Part shown: piece by piece, positions 7,138 to 20,819 of the stretch
How positions within the stretch are numbered: the first letter of the stretch is position 1
How the letters are laid out: every line of letters starts with the position of its first letter
Assembly (NCBI GenBank): GCA_964634365.1
Contig: CAZWJU010000005.1
Location: 1 to 27,638 of the forward strand
Direction: 5' to 3'
Source of the DNA: an uncultured Candidatus Saccharibacteria bacterium
Lineage (GTDB): Bacteria; Patescibacteriota; Minisyncoccia; Phycocordibacterales; UBA9973
Length of the DNA: 27,638 bases
Translations under genes and position numbers: made by a program
Notes under the pieces: model-generated
Seen by the model: the letters and a program-made list of their open reading frames with translations, nothing else
Told to the model about the DNA's origin: nothing
The model's database searches: none

Positions 7138-7203
7138 ATGGCAGCAAAGAAAAAGAAAAAGGCAGCTCCTAAGAAAAAGGCAGCTAAAAAGAAGAAGAAA
7201 TAG
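7138..7203 (+). CDS. Putative 21-aa Lys/Ala-only micropeptide (MAAKKKKKAAPKKKAAKKKKK)
   Basis: ATG..TAG ORF followed 18 nt later by a strong terminator at 7221-7254 (caaaatcctc/gaggattttg + T7). Could equally be a purine-rich non-coding transcript. Confidence 0.3.
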   Translation: MAAKKKKKAAPKKKAAKKKKK

Positions 7204-7308
7204 TTTCTACTTCTAAAAAACAAAATCCTCCCTATCAGAGGATTTTGTTTTTTTATGTGTCGATAAAATTTGCCTTTTATGCTATACTCTGTTTTTAAAT
7301 ATATATTT

Positions 7309-16412: not shown

Positions 16413-16580
16413 TTGCGACGAATGATCCTTTGAATCAATGCACACAAAGTCGTATTTTTACGATTAATGATGTGCCGAACAAGGCTTATTGTCTGAATAT
16501 TTATTCAGAGTTCGTTAATCATATAAGCATAGTTGGAATCTCTAAAAGATTATCCGGTTTTTTCCTACCTAAAAAGGAAT

Positions 16581-18947
16581 ATGTATTTTTTCACAAAAAA
16601 ACCAAAAACCATATTGATGGAAATTTTGAATTTTTTAGGCTCTGCTGCCTTGCTTATTGCAGGCGCCGTGCTGTTTTTATTTATCCTCTATAATGCCCTT
16701 TGGAATATCAAGGGTGACCAGGTTGGTGTTATGGAACGCCGTTGGATCGGAAAAGAAATGGCTAATGGACGTACTGTCGCACTGAAAGGTGAAATTGGGG
16801 TTCAGGCCACAATTTTGGGTCCGGGTTTGTACCTAAAGATACCTTTTGTGATACGAGTTACTAAGCATAAATATCTGAGAATCGATGATAATCAGATTGG
16901 GCTTGTGAGCGCTATCGCTGGTAATCCTATTCCACAAGATAGATATTTTGCTGGAAGCGTGGAGTGTAATTCTTTCCAAGACGGAGAAGCATTTTTGAAG
17001 AACGGTGGTGAAAAAGGACCTCAGCTTCAAATCTTAATGCCTGGTGAACACAGGGTGAATCCGCATCTGTTTGAAATCTCAGTTGTTCCGGCTGTGTCTA
17101 TAGCCAACGATCAAGTGGGGATTGTGGAAGCGGTTGCTGGACTACCTGTTGATGCAGGACGCATCTTCGCGAATAAAGTTGAGTCCAATAATTTTCAGGA
17201 CGCGACATTATTTCTCGAAAATAAGGGACAAAAAGGTCCACAACCGGACGTCTTACCTCCGGGATTTTACAGGATAAACACTTTACTTTTCAAAGTAAAA
17301 GTTAAAAATGCAACCGTGATTGCCGGTGGTACAGTTGGACTCGTGACTGCTATGGATGGGGTACAAATTCCCGCTGGGCGATTGCTTGGTAAGCATGTGG
17401 AAGAGCACTCAAACTTTGAAAAAGGAGAAGAGTTTATTAAAAATGGTGGTGAAAAAGGGCGTCAGCTCGATTTCCTTATGCCTGGTACCTACCGTATCAA
17501 TACAGATCTGTTTAACATCCAGAAAGATGTTGCGTGGGTTGAAGTTGGTCCGGATGAAGTTGGTATCGTAACAGTACTGGAAGGAAAGCCAATTATGGAA
17601 AAGGATCAAATTGCTGCAAAGGATATTGATTTGAATCTCCATAATAACTTCCAAAATGCTTCTGCCTTTATCTCCCACAGTGGTGAAAAAGGTTTACAGT
17701 CGCCTGTTTTACGTTCCGGTAACTACGCCATAAATACATGGTTTGCTGAAGTGGAAAAAACACCAATGGTGAATGTTCCAATTGGACATGTTGCTGTTGT
17801 GGTTTCGTATGTTGGTGCTGATGGTGAAGACACTTCCGGCACTCAGTTTAAGCACGGTAATATTGTGAAGAAAGGCCAAAAGGGTGTATGGGAAGAAGTT
17901 TTACATCCCGGTAAATACCCGCTCAACACTCATATCATGAAGGTTGAGCTTGTGCCTACGACTAATATCGTACTGAACTGGGCAAATGCCAGGACAGAGT
18001 CACACGCACTCGACGAAAAACTTTCTACGATCACCGTGCGTTCACGTGATGGTTTTACATTCAATTTGGATGTATCACAAATCATTCATGTGCCGGCAAA
18101 TGAAGCGCCGAAGGTTATTGCGCGCTTTGGTAATATGAAAAACCTTGTTTCGCAAGTACTCGAACCAACCATCGGTAACTATTTCCGTAATTCGGCACAA
18201 AACAGCGACGCGATCGACTTCCTTAAAAAGAGATCCGACCGCCAAGGTGAAGCCAAGGAGCATATCGTAACGGTTCTTCAAAGGTATAATGTGGATGCGG
18301 TTGATACCTTGATTGGTGATATTAATCCACCGGAAACACTTATGAAGACTTTGACTGACCGAAAGCTTGCAGAGGAAATGAAATTAACGTTTGATCAACA
18401 GAAAATTGCTGAAGATACTCGTCGCGATTTTGAGTCTGCAAAAGCAAACGCTGATATTCAGCCTCAGGTAATCCAGTCTGAAAGACAGATCTTTATTGCT
18501 GAAAACCATGCCAATGCTGAGGTAAAGAAATCTGAGGGTATGAAAAAAGCGGCAGTATTGCGAGCAGAAGGTGAAAAAGAATCAAAAATTCTCACTGCTA
18601 CCGGTGAAGCTGAGGCAACGAAGCTTATTGCTGTTGCTGATGCAGAAAAAACTGAAAAGGTTGGTTTGGCTGAAGCTAAGATTATTCTTGAAAAAGGTAA
18701 ATCAAATGCTGAAGCTTACAAGCTTGAAGTTGCTGCTATGGGTGAAGGAAACTTCGGTCGTATCAAGGTAATGGAGCAGATTGCTCGAGAAAATGTAAAA
18801 TTGATTCCGGAAAACATCATTGTTGGTGGCGGTGAAGGAGGAGGTGGTCTCATTGAGAACTTCCTCGGAATTTCAATGATTGAAAAGTTGACCGGTAAAA
18901 AATTTGCTGAAACTTCAGTTGAAGAAAAAACTGAAGAGAAGAAGTAA
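16581..18947 (+). CDS. Flotillin-like SPFH-domain membrane protein with ~5 tandem N-terminal partial-SPFH repeats
   Basis: N-terminal TM helix. First SPFH-start module (GDQVGVMERRWIGK..GPGLYLKIPF). Repeats of ~75 aa each contain [ND]xQVGIV...NNFQDAxxFLxNGGEKGPQxxxLxPGxYRINTxLF. A complete SPFH core follows (..ITVRSRDGFTFNLDVSQIIHV..). C-terminal flotillin-type Ala/Glu/Lys coiled coil (AEAKIILEKGKSNAEAYKLEVAAMGEG). The start could be the ORF-track start at 16533 instead. Confidence 0.65.
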   Translation: MYFFTKKPKTILMEILNFLGSAALLIAGAVLFLFILYNALWNIKGDQVGVMERRWIGKEMANGRTVALKGEIGVQATILGPGLYLKIPFVIRVTKHKYLRIDDNQIGLVSAIAGNPIPQDRYFAGSVECNSFQDGEAFLKNGGEKGPQLQILMPGEHRVNPHLFEISVVPAVSIANDQVGIVEAVAGLPVDAGRIFANKVESNNFQDATLFLENKGQKGPQPDVLPPGFYRINTLLFKVKVKNATVIAGGTVGLVTAMDGVQIPAGRLLGKHVEEHSNFEKGEEFIKNGGEKGRQLDFLMPGTYRINTDLFNIQKDVAWVEVGPDEVGIVTVLEGKPIMEKDQIAAKDIDLNLHNNFQNASAFISHSGEKGLQSPVLRSGNYAINTWFAEVEKTPMVNVPIGHVAVVVSYVGADGEDTSGTQFKHGNIVKKGQKGVWEEVLHPGKYPLNTHIMKVELVPTTNIVLNWANARTESHALDEKLSTITVRSRDGFTFNLDVSQIIHVPANEAPKVIARFGNMKNLVSQVLEPTIGNYFRNSAQNSDAIDFLKKRSDRQGEAKEHIVTVLQRYNVDAVDTLIGDINPPETLMKTLTDRKLAEEMKLTFDQQKIAEDTRRDFESAKANADIQPQVIQSERQIFIAENHANAEVKKSEGMKKAAVLRAEGEKESKILTATGEAEATKLIAVADAEKTEKVGLAEAKIILEKGKSNAEAYKLEVAAMGEGNFGRIKVMEQIARENVKLIPENIIVGGGEGGGGLIENFLGISMIEKLTGKKFAETSVEEKTEEKK

Positions 18948-19010: not shown

Positions 19011-19042
19011 TAAGCCGGAGGTTAAACACCTCCGGTTTTTTT
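19011..19042 (+). terminator. Intrinsic terminator gccggaggttaaacacctccggt + T7; overlaps the 3' end of the convergent minus-strand gene
   Basis: Perfect 9-bp GC stem plus T-run. Confidence 0.8.
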
Positions 19043-19660
19043 ATTTTTTACTTTTTGTTTTTTCCATTGGGTCATCGCGCTGGTCTTTTTTTCTAAATCT
19101 GAGAGTGGGCGTAGTTTGTAGATTTGTTTTTTAGAAAGTATTTTTGTATGAGGGCTCTCGTCGAGTGCAATAGCTAGGTCCCATAAATCTTCTTCTTCTA
19201 CTACCCAAGACGGAGTGCTTTTCGATAAGTCGAAAGGTTTTGAATAGTCCCGTAGTGTTTTCACTCCATCTTTGACAGTTGCGTATTCGTGGAAATACGA
19301 CATTACTAGTTCGCGTACAGATTTGTATACAGGATCTCGAAAACGCAATACTGGATAGTTGGTCTTGCTTATAGCGCCCCAGAAACCGTCTATTTTAAAA
19401 AGTGCGACTACATGATCGAAATCTTTTTTATTGGCACGAAGGTCGAGTATTAGTGGCTTTTGTCCGTGATAGGCGAGAGCGAGCGCAGCAAAAAGAGCGC
19501 CTTCTATACAGTGAGCTTTTTTATATTTCATAACTTGCCGTGGGGACAGAAGTGTCTCGTCAAAATTTTGCGGAATTGTGTCGAGCCAGTTTTGGATTTT
19601 ATACGGATTGTTTAATTTTTTCAGCAGAGCAATTTCTGTTTTGTTTAAATCTTTGAACAT
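19022..19660 (-). CDS. Papain-fold cysteine peptidase-like protein (peptidase C39-like/transglutaminase-like Cys-His signature)
   Basis: KAHCIEGALFAALALAYHG resembles the C39 active-site Cys context (CG.A.LAM...YG). A downstream DFDHVVALFK supplies a His candidate. Confidence 0.4.
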   Translation of the reverse strand: MFKDLNKTEIALLKKLNNPYKIQNWLDTIPQNFDETLLSPRQVMKYKKAHCIEGALFAALALAYHGQKPLILDLRANKKDFDHVVALFKIDGFWGAISKTNYPVLRFRDPVYKSVRELVMSYFHEYATVKDGVKTLRDYSKPFDLSKSTPSWVVEEEDLWDLAIALDESPHTKILSKKQIYKLRPLSDLEKKTSAMTQWKKQKVKNKKTGGV

Positions 19661-19698
19661 AAGCTAGATTATAGCAATTTTTATGCTATTATTTCACA

Positions 19699-20163
19699 AT
19701 GCAGAAAACAAAGAAAAAAAATAAAGATAAAAGTGCAAAGCATGTAATCCCTCGCACAAAGGTCGGAAGATCTTCACACAGCGGTTTCGGAATATTTGCA
19801 ATTGATCCGATAAAAAAAGGTGACTTTATAATAGAGTACATAGGCAAGATTTGTACCAACAAAGAAATTGAAGATAACTTAGGTATGTATCTTTTTGAGC
19901 TAAACAATAAGTTCACAATCGACGGTACTACTCGTAAAAATAAAGCTAGATATGTGAATCATTCGTGTCGTCCAAATGCTGAGAGTGATGTGAAAGGTTT
20001 GCGAGTTTTTATATCTGCTATAAAAGACATTGCACCAGGTGAAGAAGTTACATATGACTATGGAAAAGAATTCTTCAATGAATTTATAAAACCAAAAGGT
20101 TGTAAGTGTGGTTTCTGTGATGGAAAAGGCAAGAAACTTCCTCTTAAAAAGAAGAAAAAATAA
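19699..20163 (+). CDS. SET-domain protein lysine methyltransferase (bacterial, 154 aa) with Lys-rich N- and C-termini
   Basis: GFGIFAIDPIKKGDFIIEYIGK (SET-N). RYVNHSCRPN (NHSC.PN). GEEVTYDYG (SET-C). Post-SET-like CKCGFCDG. Confidence 0.8.
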   Translation: MQKTKKKNKDKSAKHVIPRTKVGRSSHSGFGIFAIDPIKKGDFIIEYIGKICTNKEIEDNLGMYLFELNNKFTIDGTTRKNKARYVNHSCRPNAESDVKGLRVFISAIKDIAPGEEVTYDYGKEFFNEFIKPKGCKCGFCDGKGKKLPLKKKKK

Positions 20164-20167
20164 TATC

Positions 20168-20196
20168 AAAAATACCCCTGAGAGGGGTATTTTTGA
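20168..20196 (+). terminator. Intrinsic terminator aaaaatacccctgagaggggtattttt
   Basis: Perfect hairpin plus T-run. Confidence 0.8.
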
Positions 20197-20261
20197 TTAT
20201 TGACTTTTGTGTATTTTTGGGGCATCATGGGGTGTTCTTCTAAAAACTTAAAACGAAATAT

Positions 20262-20819
20262 ATGCCGAGAAAAGCTATCTTAGACAGGTTAAAAAGAGAA
20301 ATCAGGACTGTAGACAACTTCCCAAAAGAGGGAATCAGGTTCAAAGATTTATGTAGCGTATTGGCAAACCCAATACTGATGCAAGATGTGTGTCAGGGTC
20401 TGTACAATGACCTGCTTCCACTCAAAGATAAGATCACTCATGTGGTCTGTCTGGAATCGAGAGGATTTATTTTTGGTACGGTAATGGCGCTTTATCTAAA
20501 AGTGCCGATGGTTATCGTAAGAAAGCCCGGTAAGCTCCCAGGTGAGCTTGTAACGTTAGCCTACAAAAAAGAGTACGGCGAGGATATCTTGAGTGTCCAG
20601 AAGGATGCTGTTGGTCCGGGTTGTAACGTGTTGATTCACGATGACCTTCTTGCAACAGGGGGAAGTGCTCTCGCTGCAGCAATGCTCGTAGAAAAATGCG
20701 GCGCAGATATTGCAGGCTTCAGCTTCATTATGGAGCTCGATGAGCTCGCAGGCAGAGGAAAGCTCGAAAGATTTTCCGATCACATATTTTCGGTAGTGCA
20801 TTTCGAGGAAGGGGAGTAA
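20262..20819 (+). CDS. apt: Adenine phosphoribosyltransferase
   Basis: NFPKEGIRFKDL; CLESRGFIFG..VRKPGKLPGE; PRPP-binding VLIHDDLLATGGS. Terminator at 20837-20863. Confidence 0.85.
   Translation: MPRKAILDRLKREIRTVDNFPKEGIRFKDLCSVLANPILMQDVCQGLYNDLLPLKDKITHVVCLESRGFIFGTVMALYLKVPMVIVRKPGKLPGELVTLAYKKEYGEDILSVQKDAVGPGCNVLIHDDLLATGGSALAAAMLVEKCGADIAGFSFIMELDELAGRGKLERFSDHIFSVVHFEEGE

Follow-up and report, generated by a model that had tools for sequence, protein, structure and literature searches.

A small SET-domain protein gene and a CPR-C4-family gene arranged back to back in a Patescibacteria contig

The locus

The DNA analyzed here is a stretch of 27,638 nucleotides of contig CAZWJU010000005.1, referred to as the window at its full length. 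It carries two divergently oriented genes, one for a small SET-domain protein and one for a putative cysteine peptidase, which had been singled out as a possible functional pair in a preliminary description made from the DNA letters. The first was assigned to a widespread family of standalone prokaryotic SET proteins and the second to CPR-C4, a protease family of the candidate phyla radiation (CPR; Patescibacteria). Both genes belong to recognised families, one annotated by NCBI and the other matching a protease that has been crystallised and assayed. The two genes do recur as neighbours, but in a restricted set of lineages, and the arrangement is dispensable. The two genes and their spacer are located as follows, with the supporting evidence in brackets.

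19699..20163, plus strand: SET gene, 154 amino acids, ATG start (open reading frame (ORF), Pfam SET, PDB matches, alignment, AlphaFold2 model)
19022..19660, minus strand: CPR-C4-family gene, 212 amino acids, ATG start (PDB profile, BLASTP, AlphaFold2 model, Foldseek)
19661..19698, no strand: divergent spacer, 38 bp (sequence and consensus scan)

The SET protein

The 154-residue protein is composed of a basic N-terminal tail (residues 1–28), the SET core (29–122), a post-SET CxCx2C cluster (135–140), and a basic C-terminal tail (141–154). Profile searches placed it in the SET family, as had been proposed: Pfam SET (PF00856) was matched over profile positions 1–105 of 105 (envelope residues 29–122) with E=7e-25 and 87.9 bits versus a cut-off of 22.4. 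Every motif quoted in the preliminary description as part of a full SET signature was present in the translation, namely GFGIFA (29–34), NHSCRPN (87–93), GEEVTYDYG (114–122), and the Cys-rich post-SET stretch CKCGFCDG (135–142). The Lys-rich tails at both termini, which had likewise been described, were also confirmed.

19783..20064, plus strand: SET catalytic core, residues 29–122 (Pfam envelope and invariant columns)
20101..20118, plus strand: post-SET cysteine cluster C135-x-C137-x-x-C140 (aligns to the ASH1L post-SET)

The core holds G29-F-G31, N87-H88-S89-C90, and E116-V-T-Y119-D-Y121. In an alignment of 18 diverse SET homologues, G29, G31, Y47, N87, C90, Y119, Y121, C135, and C137 were invariant, and C140 was kept in at least 90%. 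The roles of the individual motifs in S-adenosylmethionine (SAM) binding, as Phe/Tyr switch, and as catalytic Tyr are established SET enzymology; we take Y119 to be the Phe/Tyr-switch position and Y121 the catalytic Tyr. The cysteines C135, C137, and C140 are predicted to bind zinc together with C90.

The best PDB matches were the SET domains of ASH1L, MLL2/3/4, NSD, and G9a, with E-values from about 1e-19 to 1e-13. The motif residues aligned with their ASH1L equivalents, and the alignment extended through the post-SET cysteines. The AlphaFold2 model had a predicted local distance difference test score (pLDDT) of 80, with disordered tails, and its top 50 Foldseek matches were all SET domains at a probability of 1.0 (MLL, NSD, and G9a among the top). 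The model and the Foldseek matches place the protein in the SET beta-fold. Similarity to the NCBIfam AnkI/LegAS4 model was weak (E=6e-6), far under the cut-off, and restricted to the generic SET core. Neither the SET protein nor the CPR-C4 protein matched any defence system in a PADLOC scan. The 154-residue protein is a bona fide member of the SET plus post-SET lysine methyltransferase family by its sequence, and methyltransferase activity is predicted for it.

A pattern scan of species-representative genomes gave confirmed loci of the standalone SET family in at least 578 species genomes. Carriers are found among Bradyrhizobium, Nitrobacter, Rhodopseudomonas, Microvirga, Acidobacteria, many Patescibacteria, and metagenome-assembled genomes of an Actinomycetota and a Bathyarchaeia member. 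The bacterial relatives are 50–60% identical to the window protein, and "SET domain-containing protein" is the NCBI name for members of its 90%-identity cluster. The CxCx2C post-SET spacing was present in 111 of 120 family members. A net charge of at least +3 was calculated for the N-terminal tail of 91 of 106 relatives and for the C-terminal tail of 84; the window tails (+9 and +7, respectively) compare with family medians of +5 and +4.

In a rough neighbour-joining tree, most CPR sequences grouped together, apart from the proteobacterial ones. The preliminary description had asked whether the SET gene was horizontally acquired. A recent acquisition from a eukaryote was rejected because eukaryotic proteins are much more distant than the bacterial relatives. 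In reviews, the characterised SET enzymes listed from outside the eukaryotes are cpnSET/NUE, RomA/LegAS4, BtSET, BaSET, Go1-SET, and vSET, and Bradyrhizobium is mentioned just as a SET carrier (PMC3980110, PMC10117894). Literature searches returned nothing relevant on SET proteins in Patescibacteria/CPR, no characterised Bradyrhizobium or Rhodopseudomonas orthologue of the small family, and no substrate established by experiment for it.

Two side observations concern family members outside the window (locus labels begin with L, protein labels with P). The 264-residue protein P0002 (locus L167, 4001–4795) consists of two tandem small SET plus post-SET units. Its gene adjoins RNase R, and the contig also encodes a Por-secretion-tail metalloprotease, so it is probably not from a CPR genome. 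In Alphaproteobacteria, SET neighbours were TetR, Rrf2, and XRE regulators, a DsbA-like protein, and a carotenoid oxygenase; this synteny is uninformative because the loci come from closely related Nitrobacteraceae.

The CPR-C4 protein

The divergent neighbour had been described as a papain/C39-like cysteine peptidase on the basis of a Cys...His signature. The Cys/His peptidase character and the residues C51 and H83 were correct, but the family is CPR-C4. In the 212-residue protein, HCIEGALFAALALAYHG occupies residues 50–66 and DHVVAL residues 82–87. A 28-member family profile matched the PDB entries 7OB6/7OB7/7PJO, "CPR-C4", with E=2e-90 over positions 4–206 of 208, and BLASTP against the sequence of that structure gave 55% identity (E=5e-72). 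The AlphaFold2 model of the window protein had a pLDDT of 91.7 and was superimposed by Foldseek on 7OB6 with a template modelling (TM) score of 0.90 and a root-mean-square deviation of 1.3 Å; VASH1/2 followed, and then LapG and transglutaminases.

The structure of the prototype has been solved, and proteolysis of labelled (BODIPY-)casein was shown (Cornish et al., J Biol Chem 2022, PMC9108980). That protein is a homodimer with a non-canonical C61-H93-L115(carbonyl) triad, a structural D83/D92/D182 zinc site, and a pocket charge unlike that of vasohibins (PMC9108980). In the alignment, the triad corresponds to C51/H83/L105 of the window protein and the zinc ligands to D73/D82/D167; all of these residues are conserved. 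Among 28 CPR-C4 homologues, C51 and H83 were invariant and L105 was at least 90% conserved.

19508-19510, minus strand: codon of triad residue C51
19412-19414, minus strand: codon of triad residue H83
19346-19348, minus strand: codon of triad residue L105

The identification needed a profile search against PDB sequences, as the family scans were insufficient: NCBIfam gave no match, and Pfam gave only a sub-threshold DUF553 transglutaminase-like match (E=0.003). Papain (C1) or C39 identity was rejected, as no Pfam C1/C39 match was found at E≤0.1 and none of these folds was among the top 50 Foldseek matches; merely the general Cys...His order is shared. The sequence and model indicate that the protein is a full-length, orthologue-level CPR-C4 member, that is, a vasohibin-like cysteine protease of transglutaminase fold, with protease activity predicted.

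CPR-C4 proteins form a very large, highly conserved family of Patescibacteria "hypothetical proteins" of about 200 residues, with at least 7,870 clusters at 90% identity, and are far more widespread in CPR than SET. An exhaustive profile search yielded 1,714 clusters at 50% identity, nearly all of them made up of standalone proteins. No SET fusion was found among the best 150 of these 1,714 representatives; the long forms tested carried MYND, fn3, or no Pfam domain, and none carried SET. Conversely, none of the SET homologues listed was long enough for a SET–CPR-C4 fusion. Homologues are deposited as "hypothetical protein" and lack a Pfam model, so the window gene and thousands of others can now be named.

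As a side observation, the long proteins P0303 (563 residues), P0350 (670 residues), and P0315 (832 residues) carry a C-terminal domain with strong similarity to CPR-C4 (E of about 1e-49 to 1e-57), preceded at the N-terminus by MYND zinc fingers, fibronectin-III domains, or both. Since MYND fingers are a typical feature of eukaryotes, there may be eukaryotic proteins that resemble CPR-C4 much more closely than vasohibins do and that are absent from the account in PMC9108980.

Frequency of the arrangement

Neighbourhoods were surveyed in both directions. The forward test covered 80 genome loci from the SET alignment (28 Patescibacteria, classed as such by composition or record title, and 52 non-CPR), with 5 kb as the neighbourhood, and three look-ups of the closest non-sister SET relatives raised the CPR SET loci to 31. 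The reverse test covered 80 metagenome loci from the CPR-C4 alignment, 64 of which had enough upstream sequence to be judged.

A CPR-C4 gene was located within 5 kb at four of the 31 CPR SET loci. The two genes are divergent and adjacent in L013 and L044, divergent with one ORF between them in L006, and on the same strand 1.2 kb apart in L067. In the reverse direction, SET was found near two of the 64 assessable CPR-C4 loci (L097 and L145), both times immediately upstream and divergent. In the sister genome CP064973.1 (L003), the pair is present with a spacer of 38 bp that is nearly identical in sequence, but the whole surrounding block is retained there as well. The pair thus recurs in all of these relatives, contrary to the possibility, raised in the preliminary description, that no relative would conserve it. 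The adjacency is not the rule in carrier genomes, as these counts show. No CPR-C4 gene was found near the closest non-sister SET relatives P0006 (62%), P0009 (59%), and P0002 (55%), or near any of the 52 non-CPR SET loci. In the SET tree as in the CPR-C4 tree, the paired genes belong to about two sub-lineages.

Other neighbours recurred as well. A Csp gene, encoding a CspA-like cold-shock protein of about 67 residues, is convergent with SET and immediately downstream of it in four Patescibacteria loci, about as frequent as the CPR-C4 adjacency.

L032, 5445-5651, minus strand: Csp gene beside SET
L048, 5499-5684, minus strand: Csp gene beside SET
L067, 5427-5633, minus strand: Csp gene beside SET
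L080, 896-1063, minus strand: Csp gene beside SET

This neighbour could be residual synteny or a hint of a nucleic-acid-chaperone substrate. A conserved small ORF downstream of SET, considered as a separate candidate, was rejected as an artefact of the 70-residue ORF cut-off; the real gene there is the Csp gene on the opposite strand.

The most frequent neighbour of CPR-C4 was an ABC transporter (ATPase and permease), convergent with it at about six of 73 loci and also in L003. Of the window genes, SET tied with BacA near CPR-C4, each at two of 80 loci.

L003, 8699-10415: ABC transporter beside CPR-C4
L097, 5995-7459: ABC transporter beside CPR-C4
L092, L093, L096, L120, and others: ABC transporter beside CPR-C4

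On the original CPR-C4 contig, ABC-transporter genes were the sole adjacent genes, and the context was judged uninformative and not conserved (PMC9108980).

Spacer, hairpins, and window context

The spacer and the outer ends of the two genes hold the following elements.

19673-19668, minus strand: hexamer of an extended -10-like TGcTATAAT on the CPR-C4 side
19687-19692, plus strand: -10-like TATTAT on the SET side
19671-19689: inverted repeat ATAGCA-N7-TGCTAT with 6-bp arms
20165..20197, plus strand: terminator-like hairpin directly 3' of the SET stop, 15-pair stem, T-rich tail
20200-20228: promoter-like site of the downstream adenine phosphoribosyltransferase (APRT) gene (consensus scan)
19012..19038, plus strand: terminator-like hairpin at the convergent 3' ends of SPFH and CPR-C4, 11-pair stem with six GC pairs, T-run

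Each -10-like box ends 6–7 nt before its ATG, and neither SET nor CPR-C4 has a Shine-Dalgarno sequence. A -10-like box near the SET ATG was also seen in L013, L097, and L044. This suggests overlapping back-to-back promoters and leaderless mRNAs for both genes. The hairpin at 19012..19038 overlaps the CPR-C4 stop codon. Because hairpins stand at both outer ends, SET and CPR-C4 look monocistronic. At the gathering thresholds of Rfam, nothing was detected in or near the pair, the sole match in the window being a 16S rRNA 3' end.

The window further encodes a class II ribonucleotide reductase, SecA, BacA, RsmE, an SPFH/Band-7 protein, APRT, a DEAD-box helicase, a histidine phosphatase, and pyruvate kinase, at a GC content of about 32–43%. 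The closest relatives of its proteins are from Candidatus Nomurabacteria, Paceibacterota, and Patescibacteria, and the window genome is that of a Nomurabacteria/Paceibacteria-type CPR bacterium. The genome is therefore a reduced one, as had been guessed from the DNA letters; the nearest complete genome, CP064973.1, has 705 kb.

Several genes of the window, namely SET, CPR-C4, a 21-residue ORF, and APRT, have -10-like boxes a few nucleotides from the start codon and no recognisable Shine-Dalgarno sequence, which suggests widespread leaderless or Shine-Dalgarno-independent initiation in this organism.

19661-19698: starts of SET and CPR-C4
7100-7140: start of the 21-residue ORF
20200-20265: start of APRT
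7138-7203, plus strand: 21-residue Lys/Ala ORF MAAKKKKKAAPKKKAAKKKKK, with its own terminator-like hairpin at about 7226-7252 and a T-run

The Lys/Ala ORF is situated in the intergenic region ahead of SecA, which is very AT-rich. It had been put forward, as a speculation, as a SET substrate; nothing links it to SET. A search of 1.27 Mb of related loci gave one loosely similar case (L084, 1212-1334, 40 residues, K/R/T-rich), and there is no case for the ORF as a conserved gene or a SET substrate.

Two further regions were recorded. The bacterial 16S rRNA 3' end lies at 1-224 on the plus strand (Rfam RF00177, 184 bits). Behind it come overlapping ORFs that could not be annotated, and then the class II ribonucleotide reductase; the rRNA genes appear unlinked, as no tRNA or 23S gene follows. 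In the SPFH/Band-7 protein (16533-18947, plus strand, 804 residues), the Pfam match is restricted to residues 441–627, and in the N-terminal half a unit of about 90 residues, ending in "...GEKGPQ..L.PG.YRIN..." and matching no Pfam family, is repeated four or five times.

Discussion

We consider it likely that the locus comprises two separate, monocistronic, back-to-back CPR genes, a small SET methyltransferase and a CPR-C4 protease, whose adjacency is lineage-restricted synteny and not an obligate two-component system. The SET protein would be a minimal cytoplasmic SAM-dependent protein-lysine N-methyltransferase, a mechanism drawn from the conserved residues and from established SET enzymology. 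SAM would bind at the GxG and NHSC motifs, a zinc ion held by the post-SET cysteines and C90 would close the lysine channel, and Y121 would position the epsilon-amine of the target. Y119, an invariant Tyr at the Phe/Tyr switch, would favour mono-/di-methylation rather than tri-methylation. The Lys/Arg-rich tails, found family-wide, probably tether the protein to a polyanion (DNA or RNA). The lack of a signal peptide and the surrounding housekeeping genes make a cytoplasmic location probable. The likeliest substrate is probably an endogenous, basic, nucleic-acid-associated protein of the nucleoid or ribosome, since the basic tails are conserved and there are precedents: cpnSET of Chlamydia methylates the endogenous histone-like Hc1, and Go1-SET of Methanosarcina mazei methylates the chromatin protein MC1-alpha (PMC3980110). 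The CPR-C4 protein would work as a cysteine protease via the Cys51-His83-Leu105(carbonyl) triad, with a structural zinc site of three Asp residues. The two genes may have a common promoter region or overlapping ones.

Several observations weigh against this reading. The immediately adjacent, divergent pair recurs with spacers of 38 bp (window and L003), 41 bp (L013), and 79 bp (L097), and distant paired loci (at least five) share no other window gene, except for BacA in L006. Among 21 window genes, CPR-C4 was the one most often near SET, at four loci, followed by BacA at two and pyruvate kinase at one, the rest being at none. By a rough estimate, random placement in a genome of 700–1000 genes would give about 1% within 5 kb; the observed pairing exceeds this, and there may be some selective or regulatory linkage of SET and CPR-C4. 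Furthermore, no HU, histone-like, or ribosomal gene is adjacent to SET, and the substrate class is proposed by analogy.

One alternative is that SET methylates a ribosomal protein or translation factor, or modifies an RNA chaperone, with its tails binding rRNA or other RNA, instead of modifying a nucleoid protein. The family-wide basic tails, the convergent Csp gene directly downstream of SET in the four loci listed above, and the DEAD-box RNA helicase and RsmE genes of the window argue for it. There is also a eukaryotic parallel, as the SET enzymes Rkm1-4 methylate yeast ribosomal proteins. We nevertheless regard this substrate as unlikely, given that the Csp adjacency is confined to about two lineages, that no Csp or ribosomal protein gene stands beside the window SET, and that the characterised prokaryotic SET substrates, Hc1 and MC1-alpha, are chromatin proteins (PMC3980110).

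A functional module, in which SET and CPR-C4 act on the same protein or regulate each other and are co-regulated via the shared 38-bp region, would fit the possible coupling proposed in the preliminary description. Lysine methylation could, for example, gate or mark a tail that is trimmed by the vasohibin-like peptidase. Divergent adjacency persists at 45–57% protein identity in loci whose flanks have been entirely replaced (L013, L044, L097, and L145; likewise L006, with its one intervening ORF), CPR-C4 is the most retained SET neighbour among the 21 window genes, and the spacer contains overlapping back-to-back -10 boxes and an inverted repeat. Additionally, both proteins are "eukaryote-like" protein-modifying enzymes, and vasohibins and SETD2 both modify alpha-tubulin.

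However, about 97% of the assessable CPR-C4 loci lack SET and about 87% of the CPR SET loci lack CPR-C4, the three closest non-sister SET relatives being among the unpaired. SET proteins of this family abound in Proteobacteria and Acidobacteria, yet none of the 52 non-CPR loci has CPR-C4 nearby, and the CPR-C4 clusters are almost all standalone, with no SET fusion in the part inspected. Adjacencies to Csp, BacA, and the ABC transporter are about as frequent, the confinement of the paired genes to about two sub-lineages fits inherited synteny, and the genes of L067 are on the same strand. The adjacency claimed for the pair does recur, but as a minority arrangement, and functional coupling has weak support at best; we judge a module to be quite improbable. 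A more specific version holds that, in some Paceibacteria, SET and CPR-C4 are a protein-tail modification pair that is expressed from an overlapping back-to-back, possibly leaderless promoter and acts on one endogenous protein, which could belong to the nucleoid or the cytoskeleton or be associated with the ribosome. We give it a slim chance; if true, the orphan CPR-C4 family and the widespread family of small bacterial SET proteins would both gain their first functional context.

That SET is a secreted or translocated effector methylating host proteins, like NUE, RomA/LegAS4, BtSET, and BaSET, as the preliminary description had also considered, is very unlikely. In its favour, an obligately symbiotic life and genome reduction are characteristic of CPR bacteria (PMC9108980; 705 kb in the relative), the well-studied SET proteins of pathogens are all effectors (PMC3980110, PMC10117894), the sub-cut-off AnkI/LegAS4 similarity points the same way, and the Lys-rich tails resemble nuclear localisation signals. 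Against it, the N-terminus is hydrophilic and Lys-rich without a hydrophobic signal sequence, the window has no secretion-system genes and a housekeeping context, the orthologous basic-tailed family is common in free-living soil bacteria such as Bradyrhizobium and Nitrobacter, the LegAS4 match is confined to the generic SET core, and the hosts of CPR bacteria are mostly regarded as bacterial or archaeal, and so without histones H3 and H4 (PMC9108980).

The locus is of little importance as it stands, both proteins being from recognised families. The recurrent adjacency is one of few context clues for CPR-C4, alongside the occasional ABC-transporter neighbour, and the Csp neighbour is a comparable clue for SET. 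A cultivable Bradyrhizobium or Rhodopseudomonas would be a better place to find the physiological substrate of the small SET family.

Comparison with known systems

The closest counterparts of the window SET protein are the standalone prokaryotic SET proteins of Bradyrhizobium, Nitrobacter, Rhodopseudomonas, and Candidatus Nomurabacteria/Paceibacterota, at 50–93% identity. They share with it a length of about 130–160 residues, the GxG, NHSC, and YDY motifs, the CxCx2C cluster, and basic tails. The window tails are somewhat longer and more Lys-rich; otherwise, nothing essential differs, and the sequence comparison makes the window protein a member of this widespread family.

By their published descriptions, cpnSET/NUE, Go1-SET, BaSET, RomA/LegAS4, BtSET, and vSET (PBCV-1) are likewise small or single-domain SET enzymes outside the eukaryotes. 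The effectors among them carry secretion signals or extra domains (ankyrin, nuclear localisation signal), which the window protein lacks. Eukaryotic SET1/MLL, SET2/NSD, and ASH1L are about 30–35% identical to it (E of about 1e-19; Foldseek core TM score of about 0.65–0.7), and its Tyr at the switch position matches that of MLL1. In contrast to these, the window protein has no AWS/pre-SET, N-SET, or partner-binding domain, and its post-SET spacing is CxCx2C, whereas the eukaryotic SET1/SET2/SUV39 classes have CxCx4C.

The CPR-C4 prototype comes from an Adlerbacteria-like contig of a 75 °C hot spring, whereas the window member belongs to a mesophile-type, low-GC, Nomurabacteria-like genome. A four-residue insertion after SYFHEY in the prototype is absent from the window protein, and the window gene adjoins SET while that of the prototype adjoins ABC-transporter genes (PMC9108980). 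More distantly, VASH1/VASH2 (tubulin tyrosine carboxypeptidases), LapG, and Cytophaga 3ISR have the transglutaminase-like fold in common with the window CPR-C4 protein. Vasohibins were matched by Foldseek with E of about 1e-6 and a probability of 1.0, but at 11–13% identity and a TM score of about 0.45–0.5. Unlike vasohibins, CPR-C4 has no SVBP-type partner, and there is no tubulin substrate in these bacteria; the Cys-His-Leu(carbonyl) triad is common to both.

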